DNA of 64,000 nt from Candidatus Peregrinibacteria bacterium (GTDB lineage Bacteria; Patescibacteriota; Gracilibacteria; UBA1369; UBA12463), in NCBI GenBank assembly GCA_037447365.1, contig JBBIGU010000002.1, positions 6,678 to 70,677 on the forward strand, in the 5' to 3' direction. Position numbers and translations under genes: made by a program. Shown here piece by piece: positions 11,904 through 20,438 of the stretch. Below the pieces are notes generated by a model, which was not told where the DNA came from, did not search any database, and saw only the letters and a program-made list of their open reading frames with translations. The first letter of the stretch is position 1. The number at the start of each line of letters is the position of its first letter.

Positions 11904-14537
11904 TTATTCTTCTGATCCGTGGCATTTCTTGTATTTCTTTCCGCTTCCACATGGACAAGGATCATTTCGACCTACAGTATTTTCACTGTGAGCTTGTTCT
12001 GATTTTGTAACAATTGGTTGACCATTTGCGTCTTCCGCTGGTCGTTCTCCAGAAAGAACCGATTCGATCTGTGCTTCATTGGTCATCATCTTTTTTGGTG
12101 CTTCTGGAGCCATTTCCTCGGCTGTTGTGATTGAAACTTCAATCTTGAAGAGTGTATTTACGGTATTGAATCGAATATTACTGAGAAGTTTTTCAAATGC
12201 TTCAAAGCCTTCCTGTTTGTACTCAATCAGTGGATCACGTTGAGCATAACCACGAAGGGAAATTGCTTCACGAACGGCTTGCATATTTTCAATATGTGCC
12301 ATCCAGAGTTCGTCAATAATGCGTAAGCTGATTGCGCGCTCGACGTTCCGCATAATGTCGCTTTGAGGAAATTTCTTCTCGCGCGCCTCATACTCTTCAA
12401 ACATATACTCTTTTACCATTTGAATGAGCTCTTCCACAGTATTTACTTTTTCAAGATCTTCTTTTGTAAGTTGACGAGCTGGATTTCCGTGAATAGCGCG
12501 GATTTCCATGAGAATCTTTTCGAGGTCCCATTCACTCTTTGCTCGTTCACCAGATCCTGCATAGTTACGTACAAGCATTTCTACGACCTGGCCAATACTC
12601 AATAAAATATCTTGCTTAATGTCATCTACGAATAATACTTTTCGTCGTCGGCTATAAATAATTTCTCGGTGCATATTCATGACATCATCGTATTGAACGA
12701 GATGTTTACGAATATCAAAATGATGACCTTCAACTTTTTTCTGTGCACTCTCGATTGCCCCACTAATGAGTCGGTTTTCGATTGGCATGTCTTCTGGAAT
12801 TTGTAATGCCTCCATCATTTTCTGAACACGTTCAGATCCAAAAAGTCGCATAAGGTCATCTTCCATAGATACGAAGAATTGGCTTGTACCAGCGTCTCCC
12901 TGACGTCCAGAACGACCTCGGAGCTGATTGTCGATACGTCGTGATTCGTGACGTTCCGTACCGAGAACGAAGAGTCCTCCGAGTTCGACAACATCGTCAC
13001 CGAGTTTAATATCGGTACCACGACCAGCCATGTTTGTTGCGATAGTGACCGCACCACGCTGACCGGCATCTTTAATAATTTCTGCTTCACGTGCGTGATT
13101 TTTTGCGTTTAAGACATTGTGCGGAACACCTTCACGTTTTAGTAATTCACTAATCAGTTCAGATCGTTCAACAGAAATAGTACCAACTAAGACAGGTTGA
13201 CCCTTTTCGTGGAGTTCTTTTATTTTGGCTACAGCAGCGAGAAATTTGCCTTTCTGATTTTTGAAAATAGCATCTGGAAGATCTTTACGATTGACCGGTC
13301 GGTGTGTTGGAATGACGATCGTTTCAAGTCCGTAAATTTGAACAAATTCTTCTGCTTCTGTCTGTGCAGTACCGGTCATACCTGCAAGTTTATTGAAGAG
13401 ACGGAAGTAGTTCTGAAGTGTGACGGTTGCGAGTGTTTTGCTCTCACGTTTAACCTCGACGTTTTCTTTTGCTTCGATAGCTTGATGAAGTCCATCTGAA
13501 TAACGGCGACCTGCCATGAGACGACCGGTGAATTCATCAACGATTAAAATCTCTCCATCTTTGACGACATAATCTACGTCGTTTTTGAAGGCAGCATGCG
13601 CTTTTAACGCTTGTTCCAAATGATGAACCTCGCTATATCCGGCATCAGTATAGATATTATCAACACCGAGAAGTTTTTCGAGATGAGCGATTCCTTCGTC
13701 TGTTAAGAATGCGCCTTTTACTTTTTCGTCGACGATATAATCTTTTTCTGGTTCGAGTTGTCGAACGAGTTGTGCGTATTGTTGGTATTTCGATGTTGAC
13801 TCTTCTGCTGGTGCAGAAATGATAAGCGGTGTTCGTGCTTCATCGATCAAGATTGAATCAACCTCATCAATAATGGCATAGTTCAGACCTCGTTGAACCA
13901 TCTGTTCTTTTGTTGTGGCCATGTTGTCACGAAGATAGTCGAAACCAAATTCGTTGTTTGTTCCATAGGTAACATCTGCTTCGTAGGCGAGTTTCTTTTC
14001 ATCGTACGATTGACCATGATGAATAACACCTACTTTTAAGCCAAGAAATCGATGTAATCCTCCCATCCACTCTGCATCACGACGAGCGAGATAGTCATTA
14101 ACTGTTACTACCCAAACACCTTTTCCTGTTAGTGCGTTGAGATATACCGGAAATGTCGATACGAGTGTTTTACCTTCACCCGTTTTCATTTCTGCAATTC
14201 TTCCACGATGAAGAACAGTTCCACCGATAATCTGAACATCAAATGGAACCATGTTCCACTCTTGTTCGTTTCCATATACTTCCCATTTTCGTCCACAAAG
14301 GCGTTCTGCAGCTGCCTTTACGAGACCGAATGCCTCTGGAAGAATATCGTCGAGCGTAGCGCCATTTGCGAGTCGCTCTTTGAATTCTGCTGTTTTTTCC
14401 GGAAAGGCTTCGTCTGTTGTGAGTTCAACTTTATATTTTTTGTACCAAGCATTGGTTTCTTCAACGAGTGGCAAAATGGATCGAATCTCTTTTTCGTTTG
14501 GATCGCCGAGAATTTTGGTAATAATTTTACGTAACAT
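11904..14537 (-). CDS. secA: preprotein translocase ATPase SecA
   Basis: 877 aa. AEMKTGEGKTLV Walker A, DEAD-like IDEVDSILIDEARTPLIIS, and the C-terminal zinc motif CPCGSGKKYKKCHG. Confidence 0.95.
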   Translation of the reverse strand: MLRKIITKILGDPNEKEIRSILPLVEETNAWYKKYKVELTTDEAFPEKTAEFKERLANGATLDDILPEAFGLVKAAAERLCGRKWEVYGNEQEWNMVPFDVQIIGGTVLHRGRIAEMKTGEGKTLVSTFPVYLNALTGKGVWVVTVNDYLARRDAEWMGGLHRFLGLKVGVIHHGQSYDEKKLAYEADVTYGTNNEFGFDYLRDNMATTKEQMVQRGLNYAIIDEVDSILIDEARTPLIISAPAEESTSKYQQYAQLVRQLEPEKDYIVDEKVKGAFLTDEGIAHLEKLLGVDNIYTDAGYSEVHHLEQALKAHAAFKNDVDYVVKDGEILIVDEFTGRLMAGRRYSDGLHQAIEAKENVEVKRESKTLATVTLQNYFRLFNKLAGMTGTAQTEAEEFVQIYGLETIVIPTHRPVNRKDLPDAIFKNQKGKFLAAVAKIKELHEKGQPVLVGTISVERSELISELLKREGVPHNVLNAKNHAREAEIIKDAGQRGAVTIATNMAGRGTDIKLGDDVVELGGLFVLGTERHESRRIDNQLRGRSGRQGDAGTSQFFVSMEDDLMRLFGSERVQKMMEALQIPEDMPIENRLISGAIESAQKKVEGHHFDIRKHLVQYDDVMNMHREIIYSRRRKVLFVDDIKQDILLSIGQVVEMLVRNYAGSGERAKSEWDLEKILMEIRAIHGNPARQLTKEDLEKVNTVEELIQMVKEYMFEEYEAREKKFPQSDIMRNVERAISLRIIDELWMAHIENMQAVREAISLRGYAQRDPLIEYKQEGFEAFEKLLSNIRFNTVNTLFKIEVSITTAEEMAPEAPKKMMTNEAQIESVLSGERPAEDANGQPIVTKSEQAHSENTVGRNDPCPCGSGKKYKKCHGSEE

Positions 14538-14666
14538 GTTGGGTTGTTGATCGAAAATAAAATAATCCGTCTGGGACTTCTAAAGCCAATGTATTTTAGT
14601 TGAAGTGAAGCCAAAATACAAGGTTTTACCAGCTTTGATATGGGGTTTTGCCTGGGCGAAGGTGCT

Positions 14667-16100
14667 TTATTCTTTGTATCCTCTCAAAACAATGAAAAAT
14701 GTCTTCAGGATCACCTTTAGATCGAGATCTATGGACCAGTTTTGGATATAGAAAGTGTCCAGGCGGACTTCTTCTCGGAAGTCGAGATCTGATCGGCCAG
14801 AGATTTGCGCCATGCCCGTGAGACCTGGTTTTACCTCGAGGACGAACTTGTCACCGCGTGAATATTTTTCTACTTCTTCTGGAAAGTGTGGGCGTGGTCC
14901 GACGATGCTCATGTCGCCTATGAAAATGTTCCAGAGCTGTGGAAGTTCATCGATTGAAAATCTTCTGAGAAATTTTCCAACACGCGTGACACGTGGATCG
15001 TTTTCAATTTTTACGAGAGGGGAGTTTTTGCGAAGATTTTTGTCGGCGAGAGTGGTGTATCTCTGATTGTGGGTGTTTGGATGCATCGTTCGAAACTTGT
15101 AGAACTTGAAGAGCTTTCCATACTGCCCTACGCGAAGAACGGGTTGACCATCGTCGAGCTTAGTGAAGAAGACTGGGCCGCGCGAGTCGATTTTAATCGC
15201 GAGCGCGATGAGTACGAAAAATGGAAATCCGATAATGAGTCCGATGAGTGATCCGACAATATCAAATGTTCGTTTGATGATTTTTCCCCAACCGTCGAGT
15301 GGTGTTGGTTTGAGTTCGAGAATAGGAATGCCACGCATGGTTGAAATTTCTACATTCGTTCGTTGAACCTCCATGAGATCTGGAACGAAAGAGTACTTCA
15401 CGTGAAGTTCACGACATGTTGCGAGTACTTCTGATCCGAACTTACTCACTTCTCCTGCCTGAATAATCTGCTCGATTTTGTGCTTTTTTATGAGTTTTTC
15501 GAGAGATGCTGTTGTTCCTAGAAAGTGATCTTTTTGTTCATGTTTTGATGTTTCGCCAATGAATCCAATTAATTTGTAATCGATGTGATTTTTGATTTTA
15601 CCCATAAAGTCTCGTGCGAAATCATTTTCTCCAATGATTGCTACTCGATACTGGCCTATGCCATTTTTAAGAAGTTGTCTTCTGATAAGATGAATGATGA
15701 GCCGTTCTGTTCCTAGGAAAATGGTTGTAAGTACCGTTGCATACACCAGAAGCAGACGCGAAAATGGAAATGTTCGTATGACGAAAAAGTACGCAATGAT
15801 CACCATAATCCATGCGAATACCAAGAAAAACATTTTTGCGAGATCACGAGCGAGTGCTCGAGAAACCTTCAAAAGGTACATCTGATTGATTGCAAAAATC
15901 ACTACAAGAAGCAGTGCGCACTTGAGCGTGAAAGTAAAAAAGTCTTCATGTGTTGGAAGTGTTGTGAAATCAAATGGACTTTGATACGTAAAAAAAGAGG
16001 GGAGTGTTCTGAATTTGAGTGCTACGAAAAACGCCGCCACGGTTAATCCAAAATCGAGTGGAATTTTAATAATGCCGAAGAAGAGACGAATGGGTTTCAT
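14667..16100 (-). CDS. polyprenyl-phosphate sugar phosphotransferase (WbaP/CpsE-type bacterial sugar transferase)
   Basis: 477 aa. N-terminal TM helices and a C-terminal catalytic domain with [21 protein letters not shown]. Confidence 0.8.
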
Positions 16101-16168
16101 GCGGACATATACTACTTCAAAGCCTGTATTGAGAAAAGAGACTCTTTTTCTCTCTGTATTTTATAGAG

Positions 16169-16631
16169 TACTGGAATGTTCTCTATAAGCCGAGTTCTGT
16201 ACACGGAAGCTTCATTGCTGAGGCTGCCGTGAGACGACTATCTATCTAGGCCCATGATCACTCATAAGCTCATGCAGTGGAGAAGAGAAGGACGGTCGGA
16301 ACCGACGTTTGGAGCACTTTCGTACACGTATCCTTTCTTCCCAGCCACCTTGCACCACCTAGGGTTTGCCACTGAGATTTTGTTGCCCTGAAATCAGAGT
16401 CCCCAAGAATCCCACTCCGCCTGAGGCGGACTTTTCACCTTTTGTTCTTCAATGTTTAAAGACTGAAGAACGAGTATTGTCTCTGTGGTACTTTCCCTTG
16501 CCCCATATTACTATGAGACCGACAGGCGTTACCTGCTAAGCGTTCCGATGGTGCTCGGACTTTCCTCTACGCGAGTTGCGAAGCGACTTGCGCCTGCTCC
16601 CGCATAGCAATCGTCAAAGAACATTCCAGTA
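16169..16631 (-). ncRNA. rnpB: RNase P RNA (bacterial type A-like)
   Basis: The minus strand reads GAGGAAAGUCCGAGCACC (P4 5' strand), GGUAACGCCUG, GAAAGUACCACAGAGA and ACAGAACUCGGCUUAU (P4 3' strand). The 14-nt terminal arms UACUGGAAUGUUCU and AGAACAUUCCAGUA form P1. No ORF covers this 640-nt gap. Confidence 0.85.
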
Positions 16632-16637
16632 CATGCT

Positions 16638-16666
16638 AGTATGCACCTTTTTTGGCTGTTTGACAA
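16638..16666 (-). promoter_or_regulatory. putative promoter for rnpB
   Basis: Minus-strand TTGTCA (16661-16666), about 17 nt of spacer, then CATACT/ATACTA with an adjacent TG, a few nt upstream of the P1 5' arm. Confidence 0.3.
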
Positions 16667-16685
16667 GTTACCGGCTTCTTTTATT

Positions 16686-16707
16686 CTAAAAATCCCTGCC
16701 CGGGCAG
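16686..16707 (-). terminator. weak intrinsic terminator after the 872-aa gene
   Basis: Minus strand: CTGCCCGGGCAG hairpin followed by GGATTTTTAG. Confidence 0.4.
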
Positions 16708-16772
16708 AAATTTAGCTTCAAATTTGACACGGTTTTGAAATGAATTCTTCCTTGTTCATAAGGGATGTATCG

Positions 16773-19391
16773 CTATTTGATCTTCACTTTTGGATGAAGC
16801 ATTTCTGTACCATCAATTCTGCTTACTCCATACATTTTTCCTTTATCTCTCGGAGGTATGCTTCCGATATTATAGCTGAGCCTGTTTGGGCCTCCTGTCG
16901 TTTCAACCCATTCGTATTTTCGCCCTTCTAATTCGAATGCTGTTCCCGGTCCATCGATATCGCATGCTATTGCTTGATGATCCGGAAGGTATATGAATAC
17001 GCAATCAATTCCTACCGCTCTTGCGAGGGTTGCTGTCATAATGCTTGAATCTTCACAATCACCCCCTCTGCTCAAGAGTGACATGAGAAGACTTTTTGGA
17101 GCCTCTTCGTATGCATCTGGTACATAATAGAATGAGTGTACGAAATCTACGATTGCTCGCATCTTGTCTTTCTTGCTCTTGAATTTTTCAGTGATCTGAT
17201 TGGCGATATCTTTCGCAAATGGATCATTATCGAGAATATACAAGCCAGGGTTGATCCATTGACTACCTTCATCTAATTTTATTCTTTCTACTCGTCCTTG
17301 TCCTCTGAGTGCCTTGTTCTGCTCTATCAGTGTTGCGATTTCGACTTTTATCGGAATGGTTATTTTCTTACCTCCTGATGTGAAATGTTGCTCGTAAGCA
17401 ACTTCTTTGTATTCTGGAAGGGCGCTTGGTGGTATCGCAATGCCTTGATCTTCCATGATTGATGGGGGCAGTCTTAAGTTGCCTTTATCATCTACAATCT
17501 TGAACTTTTTGTCTTTTGTTTCGGTAACATATCTGTTTTCGGTATTTCTTTCGTCTTTTTCTGTTTTTCCAGTTAATGTTGTTTCTACTGAGAGATTTTT
17601 TGCGTTTGAATCTTTGTAACGTATGGTGTTGATTTTTCCTTTTTCGTCCGCAGCAATTTCTATTGCATTTGGATTTAGCTGAATGTTAAATGAAAAATCA
17701 AAACTGGTAACGAGAATTGCTTTTATCGCTTCGATATCCTTTGGATTATTTGCTTTGTAAATCGTTATATCATTGAAAAGATCGACAAGCCTTTGTCCGC
17801 CTTTTACTTTTCCGATTCTTGGAGGAAGTTTTGTATTTGTCCTCTCGTCGAATGGCTTGAATATGAACGCATGGTATGGGAATTTGTATTGTGGTCTATT
17901 TTTGAAATTAAATGGAACGTCTTTTGTGATAAAAAGTGTTTGTGCAAATGCCCGATTTCCAGTAACGGTATTAAAGATATATTTATCAAAGTGATCTTTA
18001 AATGCCATGAGCATGTTGAGGCCTTCCAGTTTTACTCTTTCTTGATCAAGAAACTCTGGCCTGTTCGGATCTCGTGGTGGCTCATCAATGTGCTTTTCTT
18101 CAGGTTTTGTGACGGGGGCTTTTTCGCTTTTTTTAAAGAGCCCTTCGATTTTGTCGTGGGTGAGTGCTCCAATTGCTAAAACGGCTGCAGTTCCAAGAGC
18201 CAGTATGGCATTTTTGTTGCTCTTCTTTGGGTGACTACTTTCAGATGGTTTTTTCTGTGGTTGATGTACTGGTTCTTCAGCGTTTGCATCTCCGGGTCTT
18301 TGGGATTGTGGAGGAGTTATAATCGTGGTCGTAGTGTTGACATTCGCATTTGTGGACAACATTTCTACTATTTTCTTTTTTGTGTTTTTCCCGAAGCGTT
18401 TCGTTTTTATGTCGTTTGGATCGGTGGCAAGGTTGTTTGCGAGTTTGAATCTTACAAGAGCATCTTCTGTTTTTGGTCCGAAGTTTCCGTTTGGAGCAAC
18501 GGTCATGTAACCCAGTATAAGCAAGGCGTTTTGCAACATCAGAACGTCGTTTCCGTGCATTCCTCTTCCGAGGTCTCGGGTAATTCCGTTTATTCCTTCT
18601 GCGAGATATTTCTTTTTCTCGGGCAGGGACATTGCCTCGAAAGATCCATGAGCATTTAGAGGATTTGCTGCCGTTGGCTTCCTCCCATCATTATTAAAAT
18701 CACTAAATAGATCTGCGATGAAGTTGAATAAATCAGTTCCTCGTGGTGCCTCATTTTTTAAATAATATATAAATGCTACTGGTTCTGTTGGCCAATTATT
18801 GGCTTGAAGCAGCGCTTGATTTTTGTCGAGCATTTTCTTGAGCGTTTCTTCATGATAAGCGAATAATGCTCCGCTTGCGGTTCCGCTTTCTTCGAAAGTT
18901 AGTAAAAGTGTCTTGACGCCATTTTTTGCAAGATGCACTCGATACTGCTCCATGTTTCCAATTTGACCAACTTCTATAAGCGATTTAATTGCCATCCACC
19001 CGAGCGGTTTTTTTGGACCTACCCTTTCTAAGTCTGACAAGCATTTCACTCTTTCTGCTTCTTTGTATTCAGCCATTGTTCCTACTGGATAGGTACCTTG
19101 AATATATATAGGATTTTCCTCCTCTTTTGAGTTTTGCAATATGATACATGTTGTACTTTGAGTTCCGTTTGGATTTACTACTGAAACATATATTCTCTGG
19201 TGTTTTGATCTTTCTTCTGTAGTGAGTACAACTTTAGCATCTTTTGTTTTCAACTCTTGGATTTCCTCCATTAATCGGTGATCATTCCATCCCAAAAAGA
19301 TCGATAATTCAGCTATCGCATCTTCTGGTGACATGGGCCTATTACATGAAAGTGAGTTTGATGGGGTGAGCATGTGACTATATTTACCCAA
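16773..19391 (-). CDS. large bitopic membrane protein: unknown N-domain, PG_binding_1-like repeat, one TM helix, unknown beta-rich region, transglutaminase-like cysteine-protease core
   Basis: 872 aa. The PG-binding-like segment is GMHGNDVLMLQNALLILGYMTVAPNGNFGPKTEDALVRFKL (residues about 272-322). The single hydrophobic helix is AILALGTAAVLAIGAL (about 395-411). The C-terminal core GGDCEDSSIMTATLARAVGIDCVFIYLPDHQAIACDID (Cys779) is transglutaminase-like. The start is uncertain: TTG 19391, ATG 19373 or ATG 19334. Confidence 0.75.
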   Translation of the reverse strand: MGKYSHMLTPSNSLSCNRPMSPEDAIAELSIFLGWNDHRLMEEIQELKTKDAKVVLTTEERSKHQRIYVSVVNPNGTQSTTCIILQNSKEEENPIYIQGTYPVGTMAEYKEAERVKCLSDLERVGPKKPLGWMAIKSLIEVGQIGNMEQYRVHLAKNGVKTLLLTFEESGTASGALFAYHEETLKKMLDKNQALLQANNWPTEPVAFIYYLKNEAPRGTDLFNFIADLFSDFNNDGRKPTAANPLNAHGSFEAMSLPEKKKYLAEGINGITRDLGRGMHGNDVLMLQNALLILGYMTVAPNGNFGPKTEDALVRFKLANNLATDPNDIKTKRFGKNTKKKIVEMLSTNANVNTTTTIITPPQSQRPGDANAEEPVHQPQKKPSESSHPKKSNKNAILALGTAAVLAIGALTHDKIEGLFKKSEKAPVTKPEEKHIDEPPRDPNRPEFLDQERVKLEGLNMLMAFKDHFDKYIFNTVTGNRAFAQTLFITKDVPFNFKNRPQYKFPYHAFIFKPFDERTNTKLPPRIGKVKGGQRLVDLFNDITIYKANNPKDIEAIKAILVTSFDFSFNIQLNPNAIEIAADEKGKINTIRYKDSNAKNLSVETTLTGKTEKDERNTENRYVTETKDKKFKIVDDKGNLRLPPSIMEDQGIAIPPSALPEYKEVAYEQHFTSGGKKITIPIKVEIATLIEQNKALRGQGRVERIKLDEGSQWINPGLYILDNDPFAKDIANQITEKFKSKKDKMRAIVDFVHSFYYVPDAYEEAPKSLLMSLLSRGGDCEDSSIMTATLARAVGIDCVFIYLPDHQAIACDIDGPGTAFELEGRKYEWVETTGGPNRLSYNIGSIPPRDKGKMYGVSRIDGTEMLHPKVKIK

Positions 19392-19788
19392 ATATTCTCT
19401 TGAACCAAGCGCGAGGACCTGATTCTTTTTTCTGCGTTTGCGATGGAGTTATCCGAGCCATTACCAAAGTATCTTCTTTTTCTTGGTTTTGTATTGTCAT
19501 TAATTGTTTTCGTCTTTCCTCTACATAGCCTCGCATCGCCTGAAGATCTTGTTCTGAAAGGTTGTTTGGATTTCTCTGCACAAAATCCTCAACTTCTTTT
19601 ATTTCATTTTCTATATAAGGTATATCTCCTTCATCCATTACGAGAGGGGCGGCATTGATCACAATTCCACTTTCTCTTGTTGTATATTTTTGCATCAATG
19701 AAAGAAGTCGCTGGTGTGGTCGAATTCCTACGACGTAGACTCGTTCTCCATCTGATTCAATATTGTCGCTAGGTTGGTTTGCACCCAT
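19384..19788 (-). CDS. hypothetical protein (134 aa)
   Basis: The track ORF (to 19905) overlaps the TPR gene. ATG 19788 (MGANQPSD...) avoids that overlap. The stop abuts or overlaps the 872-aa gene start. The C-terminus PRAWFKRIFG looks amphipathic. Confidence 0.5.
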   Translation of the reverse strand: MGANQPSDNIESDGERVYVVGIRPHQRLLSLMQKYTTRESGIVINAAPLVMDEGDIPYIENEIKEVEDFVQRNPNNLSEQDLQAMRGYVEERRKQLMTIQNQEKEDTLVMARITPSQTQKKESGPRAWFKRIFG

Positions 19789-19817
19789 GTGATTTTTTGT
19801 AATGTATTGTTTCTGTT

Positions 19818-20438
19818 TTATTCCTGTTCCGCTGCAGCGTCGCCACTCAACTGTCCCTTTAACTTGCCATATTCCATGGCGAAGAACTTTACGGCGTTGA
19901 GACATTCGCGGGCTTTTGTGTTTTCTGGGTCTAATACAAGTACCTTTGTGAACATGCGCATAGCGCGTTCGAAGTTTTTCTCATTCATATAGAGGACGCC
20001 GAGATCGGTCAAGATCAGTGCGTCGTTTGGGGCGAGGTTCAATGCTCGTTCTAACAAGATAACTCCTTGTCGTTTTTCACCGTTGTGATAAATGCTCCAG
20101 CCGAGGCATCGGAGAATTTCTGGGTGGTTTGGGAAGAGCTCTTCTGCTTTTTCGAGATATTCGATAGATGTCTTCCACTTTCCCATGCAAGAGTAGACGA
20201 ATCCCATGAGATAGTTTCCGTTTGGACTCTGTGGGTCGAGGGCAATAGCTCGGTCGAGTGCACGCTTCGCCTTCTGATATTCACGAAGAGTGAGATAGTT
20301 GTCGGCAATTTCTTCGTACGCCTCTGTGAAGTCGAGATCGTAGTTGAGAATTCTCTCGCAAATTTTGATTGCCTCCTGGTGATCGCCATGTTGCTTCTTT
20401 GCTTCAGCCTCCTCGAGCAGCGATTGCATATCGTACAT
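19818..20438 (-). CDS. tetratricopeptide-repeat protein
   Basis: 206 aa made of five to six 34-residue repeats with the TPR pattern, for example AIKICERILNYDLDFTEAYEEIADNYLTLREYQKAKRALDRAIALDP. Confidence 0.8.
   Translation of the reverse strand: MYDMQSLLEEAEAKKQHGDHQEAIKICERILNYDLDFTEAYEEIADNYLTLREYQKAKRALDRAIALDPQSPNGNYLMGFVYSCMGKWKTSIEYLEKAEELFPNHPEILRCLGWSIYHNGEKRQGVILLERALNLAPNDALILTDLGVLYMNEKNFERAMRMFTKVLVLDPENTKARECLNAVKFFAMEYGKLKGQLSGDAAAEQE

Follow-up and report, generated by a model that had tools for sequence, protein, structure and literature searches.

The window analysed here, a 64,000-nucleotide stretch of Candidatus Peregrinibacteria DNA (assembly GCA_037447365.1, contig JBBIGU010000002.1, positions 6,678 to 70,677 of the forward strand), encodes on its minus strand a large protein in which a PG_binding_1-like module, a single hydrophobic helix and a transglutaminase-like domain follow one another. 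Our overall reading, to which we assign a probability of about 0.65, is that this would be a type II membrane protein carrying a LapG-like peptidase outside the cell and a PG_binding_1-like adaptor or regulator inside it. What is new is the domain arrangement, the parts being already known and the lineage narrow (Gracilibacteria/Peregrinibacteria). A first-pass annotation of the same DNA had observed that the two modules lie on opposite sides of the helix and had found this puzzling, both being normally envelope-facing. It offered three explanations: an N-out protein with an intracellular protease-like domain, a cytoplasmic use of the peptidoglycan-binding fold, or a cleaved or secreted effector. 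The features of the gene are listed below, with residues numbered in an 866-amino-acid scheme (adding 6 gives the 872-amino-acid scheme of the annotation).

16773..19373, minus strand: whole gene, ATG at 19373, 866 amino acids, stop codon at 16773-16775
19077..19373, minus strand: N-terminal subdomain, residues 1-99, helices and a three-stranded sheet, without signal peptide (AlphaFold2 predicted local distance difference test, pLDDT, about 50-83; 65% identity to the ortholog)
18669..19076, minus strand: domain A, residues 100-235, belonging to a family whose members are small and without signal peptide
18348..18662, minus strand: PG_binding_1-like module, residues 238-342, extended at its N-terminus by a conserved helix (Pfam core at residues 274-318, nucleotides 18420-18554)
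18210..18347, minus strand: Pro/Thr/Ser/Asn/Lys low-complexity linker, residues 343-388, with the basic patch KKPSESSHPKKSNKN at its end (39% identity to the ortholog)
18159..18209, minus strand: single hydrophobic helix AILALGTAAVLAIGALT, residues 389-405, from Kyte-Doolittle hydropathy, read as a putative uncleaved signal-anchor
16776..18158, minus strand: ectodomain, residues 406-866, a beta-rich N-terminal part and then the peptidase core; conserved family (Pfam core at nucleotides 16989-17210)
17055..17057, minus strand: catalytic Cys773 (Cys779 in the 872-amino-acid numbering), in GGDCEDSS, invariant in 15 of 15 family members
16977..16979, minus strand: His799, presumed general base, invariant in 15 of 15 members
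16902..16904, minus strand: Glu824, within WVETT, putative acidic member of the triad (its third residue), with Glu in 14 members and Asp in 1 out of 15, placed by family motif

Both domain assignments of the annotation held up against Pfam. PG_binding_1 (PF01471) matched residues 280-324 of the 872-amino-acid numbering (E-value 1.2e-8, 35.5 bits) and Transglut_core (PF01841) residues 728-801 (E-value 1.3e-7, 32.2 bits), in each case above the gathering cut-off of 23; PF01471 reached 38.3 bits (cut-off 23) when the N-terminal piece only was searched, and PF01841 scored 36.6 bits in a genome-wide search. A Kyte-Doolittle scan of the whole protein returned one hydrophobic helix, with a mean hydropathy of 2.39 over 15 residues and 2.18 over 17, and found neither a hydrophobic N-terminus or N-terminal signal nor a second helix or re-entrant segment. 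The single helix and the absent signal peptide were therefore as annotated, and the coordinates proved exact (residues 395-411 at nucleotides 18159-18209, Cys779 at 17055-17057). The annotation had allowed that failing domain matches or an additional segment placing both domains outside would undo its argument; both domains lay above their cut-offs, and the next two hydrophobic peaks, considered as a second or re-entrant helix, turned out to be the conserved PG-binding helix and an element of the transglutaminase core. In same-genome controls scanned over 17 residues, five soluble window proteins stayed at or below 1.64 and the helices of FtsH and a sugar transferase reached 2.8-2.9.

The orientation of the helix was read from its flanks and from its homologs. 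The net charge is +4 in the preceding 20 residues versus +1 on the C side, and a lone hydrophobic segment, the lack of a cleavable signal at the N-terminus and a more positive N flank are the traits of a type II bitopic protein. All 13 complete shorter homologs of the C-terminal domain have exactly one N-proximal hydrophobic segment, with that domain directly after it. The segment ends in a lipobox-like Cys after a small residue in 10 of the 13, and several are preceded by an RR motif; these 10 look like lipoprotein-type signals, and the rest resemble uncleaved anchors. Several of P0005-P0009, P0013 and P0014 have, besides the lipobox-like Cys, an RR motif of twin-arginine-like type, and the host genome encodes a signal peptidase II. 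In alignment A1 the helix of the window protein, which is 71% identical in the ortholog, occupies the columns of the h-region of the short homologs' lipoprotein-type signals, GALTHDKI standing opposite SACDKI. Because the homologs' signals put the ectodomain outside, and because of the flank charges, the signal-less relatives of domain A and the basic N flank of a trypsin-like paralog (both described below), these sequence comparisons make an N-in/C-out topology probable. Classical PG_binding_1 proteins of the same genome (contigs C1 and C10) carry ordinary N-terminal signal peptides, and the organism therefore uses signals when exporting this fold. Among the three explanations offered by the annotation, cytoplasmic use of the PG-binding fold is the best supported, as the topology lines favour N-in; the N-out option is contradicted by the signal or anchor that stands before the C-terminal domain in 13 of 13 homologs and by the flank charges, and the cleaved or secreted effector received no positive support.

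A second protein of the same genome bears the same module. The paralog P0162 (517 amino acids; genome G000, contig C8:35131-36684, plus strand; locus L003:1456-3006, outside the window) consists of a PG_binding_1-like module, a linker, one helix, a trypsin-like (S1) domain and a Lys/Arg-rich tail, the helix being flanked by a strongly basic N side (ATRQKRVR) and an acidic C side. Its module is 84% identical to that of the window protein in amino acids (residues 239-342) and 85% in nucleotides. Over the 99 codons compared between the pair, 64 were identical, 23 synonymous and 12 non-synonymous, and the comparison indicates that the module would be under strong purifying selection. That gene conversion had recently homogenised the two modules was considered and rejected, given the 23 synonymous differences in 99 codons and the similar identities to paralog and ortholog (82-90%). 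The module core DVLMLQNALLILGYMTVAPNGNFGPKTEDAL is invariant in all five known copies. Relatives of P0162 comprise two Gracilibacteria orthologs, P0010 and P0011, and one remote HtrA-like protein; module-less relatives were looked for as a second topological anchor and none useful was found. Since module, linker and helix also precede this trypsin-like ecto-protease, the module may be a shared cytoplasmic adaptor or regulator of membrane-tethered ecto-proteases.

The wider relatives of the module are hundreds of PG_binding_1 repeat proteins, together with endolysin PHROGs. At least 68 of its 95 best relatives carry N-terminal signals, and a module standing before a helix without a signal was found among these 95 only in P0002, the database entry of the window protein, in the trypsin-like line (P0010, P0011) and in the unrelated P0038. 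Two Candidatus Gracilibacteria proteins, P0018 (1011 amino acids) and P0059 (391 amino acids), contain PG_binding_1 with neither signal nor helix, which suggests that non-envelope use of the fold may be wider in the Gracilibacteria lineage; P0018 has four such modules and a long coiled-coil-like C-terminal region. In Caulobacter crescentus, AmiR is an AmpD-type amidase fused to PG_binding_1 that acts on muropeptides after their import by AmpG (PMC13046382). Judged from these substrates, the PG_binding_1 domain of AmiR is presumably cytoplasmic. AmiR offers a likeness in that PG_binding_1 belongs to a protein working on peptidoglycan fragments, and differs in being soluble, with a C-terminal module and with neither membrane helix nor ecto-protease. 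Transglut_core domains, for their part, are often cytoplasmic. With AmiR as a precedent and with the signal-less P0018 and P0059, it was too strong to call both modules normally envelope-facing, and the topology paradox is softer than the annotation put it because neither fold is confined to the envelope. From the sequence evidence the module is probably cytoplasmic; this is the most likely placement of this "peptidoglycan-binding" module, and it is unusual and has precedent. AlphaFold2 placed helices in the module region at residues 250-268, 274-291, 302-312 and 329-346, with a pLDDT of about 40-55 and a poor alignment there.

The C-terminal ~460 residues form a family of their own, whose other members measure 484-595 amino acids. 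The AlphaFold2 model of the ectodomain has a mean pLDDT of 86.9 and a predicted template modelling score of 0.83, and Foldseek matched it to 3kd4 (Parabacteroides BDI_1141), 3isr (Cytophaga hutchinsonii), PeiP/PeiW and LapG. The probability was about 1.0 for 3kd4, 3isr and LapG and 0.98 for the best PeiP chain, which identifies a papain-like/transglutaminase core fold. 3kd4, 3isr and PeiP/PeiW were the best structural matches (E-values of 3e-5 to 1e-3, probability about 1.0) and differ in several respects, with TM-scores of about 0.2-0.3 (only the core superposes), identities of 12-17% and no cytoplasmic extension in any of them. PeiP and PeiW are pseudomurein endoisopeptidases, which cut cell-wall peptide links. 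The top Protein Data Bank (PDB) match of the family profile was LapG 4fgo (E-value 0.0098), a local match centred on GGDCED. Around the invariant Cys773, 13-14 of the 15 members retain D772, E774 and D775; the count at position 824 was made over the 15 complete members, the sixteenth row, fragment P0016, being misaligned there (Arg). No match for the ectodomain was obtained in NCBIfam or PHROGs. Because of the conservation of Cys, His and the acidic residue, the LapG-like motif and the fold and profile matches, the ectodomain is very probably an active extracytoplasmic cysteine peptidase or isopeptidase, possibly calcium-dependent, and it probably cuts a cell-wall or surface-protein substrate. 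This uncharacterised family with a LapG-like active site is a result that stands by itself.

For LapG and the bacterial transglutaminase-like cysteine proteinases (BTLCP), the comparison was drawn from PMC13090378, PMC3032545 and PMC4359373. DvhG of Desulfovibrio vulgaris, a LapG relative, is a membrane-anchored BTLCP with one N-terminal helix, in which D316 and E318 beside the nucleophile C317 form a calcium site needed for activity (PMC13090378). The window protein would share with this group a transglutaminase-fold cysteine peptidase outside the cytoplasmic membrane and, as in DvhG, one helix holding it in the membrane. Its GGDCED likewise has acidic residues around the nucleophile, the D-C-E pattern occurring in 13-14 of 15 members, and a calcium role may be proposed by analogy. 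It differs in lacking a PF06035 match, in having Glu as third triad residue and in a beta-rich part of ~270 residues before the core. In the LapD-LapG system an outside protease is under inside-out cytoplasmic control, as described in PMC3032545; unlike in the Lap system, the cytoplasmic element of the window protein is fused in cis. Nothing resembling a LapD/DvhD-like cyclic di-GMP receptor, a LapA-type adhesin with retention module or a type I secretion gene was present among the annotated neighbours in the window or the ortholog locus, the genome not having been searched for them.

Two further systems share part of this layout. TgpA (PA2873) of Pseudomonas aeruginosa is membrane-bound with a periplasmic Transglut_core, as proposed here for the outside face, and differs in having several N-terminal helices (DUF3488), a DUF4129 tail, no PG_binding_1 and no domain A. 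Bitopic proteins of the ExeA/GspA type are single-pass and combine a cytoplasmic domain with PG_binding_1; the orientation is reversed, the PG-binding domain of ExeA being C-terminal and periplasmic.

At the other end of the protein, the N-terminal subdomain had a sole match, P0026 (235 amino acids). Domain A, marked by the motifs VGPxKPLGY, WPTxP and ADAFxDxxNxGR, has dozens of stand-alone homologs of 117-190 amino acids with 34-47% identity. No hydrophobic segment was seen in 37 of 38 sampled homologs, the lone exception being a conserved core strand. Between residues ~111 and ~230 the AlphaFold2 pLDDT lies mostly at 94-98, and a Foldseek comparison of the N-terminal model with the PDB and with the viral structures of BFVD returned nothing significant. 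Weak matches to DUF3793 (PF12672) occurred in 11 of the 38 relatives, the best with an E-value of 1.7e-4 and all below the 25.1-bit cut-off, and none for the window protein; domain A had no match in PHROGs or NCBIfam, and its family is also absent from Pfam. Domain A also occurs C-terminally in larger proteins, P0050 (666 amino acids) and P0112 (360 amino acids), with family members among P0026-P0159, and the neighbours of its stand-alone genes encode hypothetical proteins. As a widespread family of small proteins with a confident predicted fold and no PDB match, domain A too is a result in its own right. The window protein is a mosaic of three independently distributed parts: the ectodomain, the PG_binding_1-like module and domain A.

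The gene itself appears intact. The annotated open reading frame at 16773-19391 is present on the minus strand and stop-free on translation; what did not stand is the TTG start and with it the length of 872 amino acids. The true start is probably ATG 19373 (866 amino acids) and less likely TTG 19391 (6 more residues), because both the database entry P0002 and the ortholog P0003 open with MLTPSN, 10 nucleotides past the upstream stop codon at 19384-19386. P0003 is full-length, syntenic, 78% identical and seen in two independent assemblies, which rules out an assembly artefact as the source of the fusion. Identity to this ortholog is 65-87% in the folded parts and only 39% in the linker. Upstream of the gene lie the following features.

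19384..19788, minus strand: soluble 134-amino-acid protein without assigned function, stop 10 nucleotides before the ATG, no Pfam family
19818..20438, minus strand: tetratricopeptide repeat (TPR) protein, 206 amino acids, without signal peptide, first gene of the likely three-gene unit, in the same place in loci L006 and L007
20536..20564, minus strand: promoter-like site TTGAAA-17-TATTAT with upstream TG, preceding the TPR gene, a consensus match only

The TPR gene, the 134-amino-acid gene and, last, the peptidase gene are probably co-transcribed as a three-gene unit, which is kept in the ortholog locus; there a 132-amino-acid gene takes the position of the 134-amino-acid one. When read from its first ATG, the upstream frame (19384-19905, minus strand, 173 amino acids) begins within the TPR gene and overlaps its 3' end, and the start at 19788 (134 amino acids) avoids this overlap and fits the 132-amino-acid gene. 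No NCBIfam or PHROGs match was obtained for the 134-amino-acid neighbour, and promoter-like sites in the region were not more numerous than in shuffled sequence. The surrounding genes are housekeeping ones, including secA, ftsH, tilS and a nucleotidyl transferase, with no secretion or lysis genes adjoining the gene among the annotated neighbours. Between the peptidase gene and the sugar-transferase gene, window positions 16101-16772 (~670 nucleotides) contain no open reading frame, the minus-strand translation giving 9 stops. The ortholog locus has two extra genes at L006:12737-14314, between the sugar transferase and secA (one encoding 180 amino acids and one, on the opposite strand, a 343-amino-acid FemAB-family protein), and the window has neither at the corresponding place (14537-14667).

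The host genome comprises 1.1 Mb in 44 contigs. An alternative genetic code was considered, since relatives are labelled Gracilibacteria, and dismissed, because table 11 translates the long frames without interruption and a few of these frames end in TGA. As a bacterium of the candidate phyla radiation, the organism presumably has a single membrane and hence no Gram-negative-type periplasm. MraY-type transferases are encoded in the genome, and cytoplasmic wall precursors should therefore exist. Among 151 genomes sampled across the class, the full gene was found in 1, the window's own; it had no match at E<=1e-8 in the 150 others, including the same-genus genome G006, so the gene is accessory even within the genus or is missing from the G006 assembly. 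Whatever else this search returned was either a classical 3D-domain/PG_binding_1 protein with a signal or domain A by itself, and the species-representative genomes yielded one partial relative only. The complete fused architecture is known from P0002 and P0003 only, and the cassette of module and helix from these two and the trypsin-like line only.

In the mechanism that we propose, the window product would be an N-in/C-out single-pass membrane protein. Outside would stand the ~460-residue ectodomain with its proposed triad Cys773-His799-Glu824 and its LapG/BTLCP-like GGDCED. The helix would be a former lipoprotein-type signal peptide whose Cys was lost, and fusion of an extension of ~390 residues in front of this signal would have turned it into an uncleaved anchor. 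Inside would lie the N-terminal extension with domain A, the PG_binding_1-like helical module and the basic disordered linker. We infer a cytoplasmic role in which the module might bind UDP-MurNAc-peptide, lipid I/II or an imported muropeptide, or else a common protein partner; binding of either kind would let conditions inside the cell position or gate the outside protease, by analogy with LapD-LapG (PMC3032545). The more specific idea that the module senses peptidoglycan precursors or recycled muropeptides in the cytoplasm and is wired via one helix to LapG-like and trypsin-like ecto-proteases, we regard as tentative and unlikely. If true, an ultra-small bacterium would possess a cis-fused inside-out device through which proteolysis outside the cell, for remodelling the wall or for shedding surface proteins, is tied to the state of wall synthesis.

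Several observations weigh against this proposal. The helix is only moderately hydrophobic and Ala/Gly-rich, below the 2.8-2.9 of the FtsH and sugar-transferase helices, the flank-charge difference is modest, and the orientation was deduced from hydropathy, flank charge and homology. For the PG-binding region the model has low confidence (pLDDT about 40-55), and the fold is taken solely from the hidden Markov model match. For the peptidase, the third triad residue is Glu, not the canonical Asp, and was placed by family motif and not from coordinates, and PF06035 (BTLCP) was missing among the Pfam hits at E<=1. Finally, the rarity of the gene leaves the comparative support thin.

The same topology evidence would equally serve a module that is cytoplasmic and unrelated to peptidoglycan, a three-helix protein-interaction module tethering the two ecto-proteases to a scaffold such as the co-encoded TPR protein. 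The PG_binding_1 fold serves without peptidoglycan in the pro-domains of animal matrix metalloproteinases. Directly upstream stand two conserved genes, for a TPR protein without signal and for a small soluble one, and the near-invariance of the module core with its added N-terminal helix across five sequences fits a fixed partner. A partner shared with the trypsin-like paralog would have to act in trans, however, and a peptidoglycan-related ligand is equally possible given wall-precursor synthesis and the AmiR precedent. We consider this explanation unlikely.

Release of the protein is quite unlikely. In that event the whole protein, or its cleaved N-terminal half, would leave the cell by lysis, in vesicles or by a non-classical route, and the module would bind the bacterium's own peptidoglycan or that of a host or prey, in which case the peptidase activity would be delivered to a foreign wall. 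Many bacteria of the candidate phyla radiation are epibionts, and signal peptides are likewise missing from endolysins and from effectors that are injected to degrade walls. The PG_binding_1 match is genuine, with wall-binding repeats and endolysins nearest to it, the distribution is patchy like that of accessory interaction genes, and the module is carried by two different peptidases. But the conserved helix, homologous to the signal peptides of the relatives, would separate module and peptidase across the membrane unless cut, the homologs of domain A resemble ordinary cytosolic proteins, and the neighbours are the TPR protein, the small soluble protein and housekeeping genes, with no secretion or lysis gene adjoining.

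The reverse orientation, with the N-terminal 390 residues including the module translocated and the transglutaminase-like domain in the cytoplasm, is highly improbable. It would agree with PG_binding_1 being mostly extracytoplasmic, as the signals in at least 68 of 95 close relatives indicate, and with the frequent occurrence of Transglut_core domains in the cytoplasm. The window protein has no signal peptide, however, and we know of no bacterial case, by Sec or YidC, in which a folded, charged N-terminal region of ~390 residues is translocated without one; furthermore, the charges around the helix speak for N-in, the C-terminal domain of every shorter homolog is an exported one, and the relatives of domain A are small signal-less proteins. 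That the whole protein is soluble and cytoplasmic is very hard to credit. The segment is indeed short (17 residues), Ala/Gly-rich and moderately hydrophobic, but it aligns with the signal or anchor of every family member, is conserved in the ortholog (71% identity) beside a basic patch, and exceeds every soluble control in hydropathy.

The case as a whole is narrow, being made from two orthologs and one paralog line. If the type II topology is right, a "peptidoglycan-binding" domain would lie inside the cell on two ecto-proteases, and PG_binding_1 could not safely be taken to indicate an envelope protein. Such an arrangement would further suggest that the state of wall precursors in the cytoplasm and proteolysis outside the cell may be linked in bacteria of the candidate phyla radiation, whose envelope biology is barely known.

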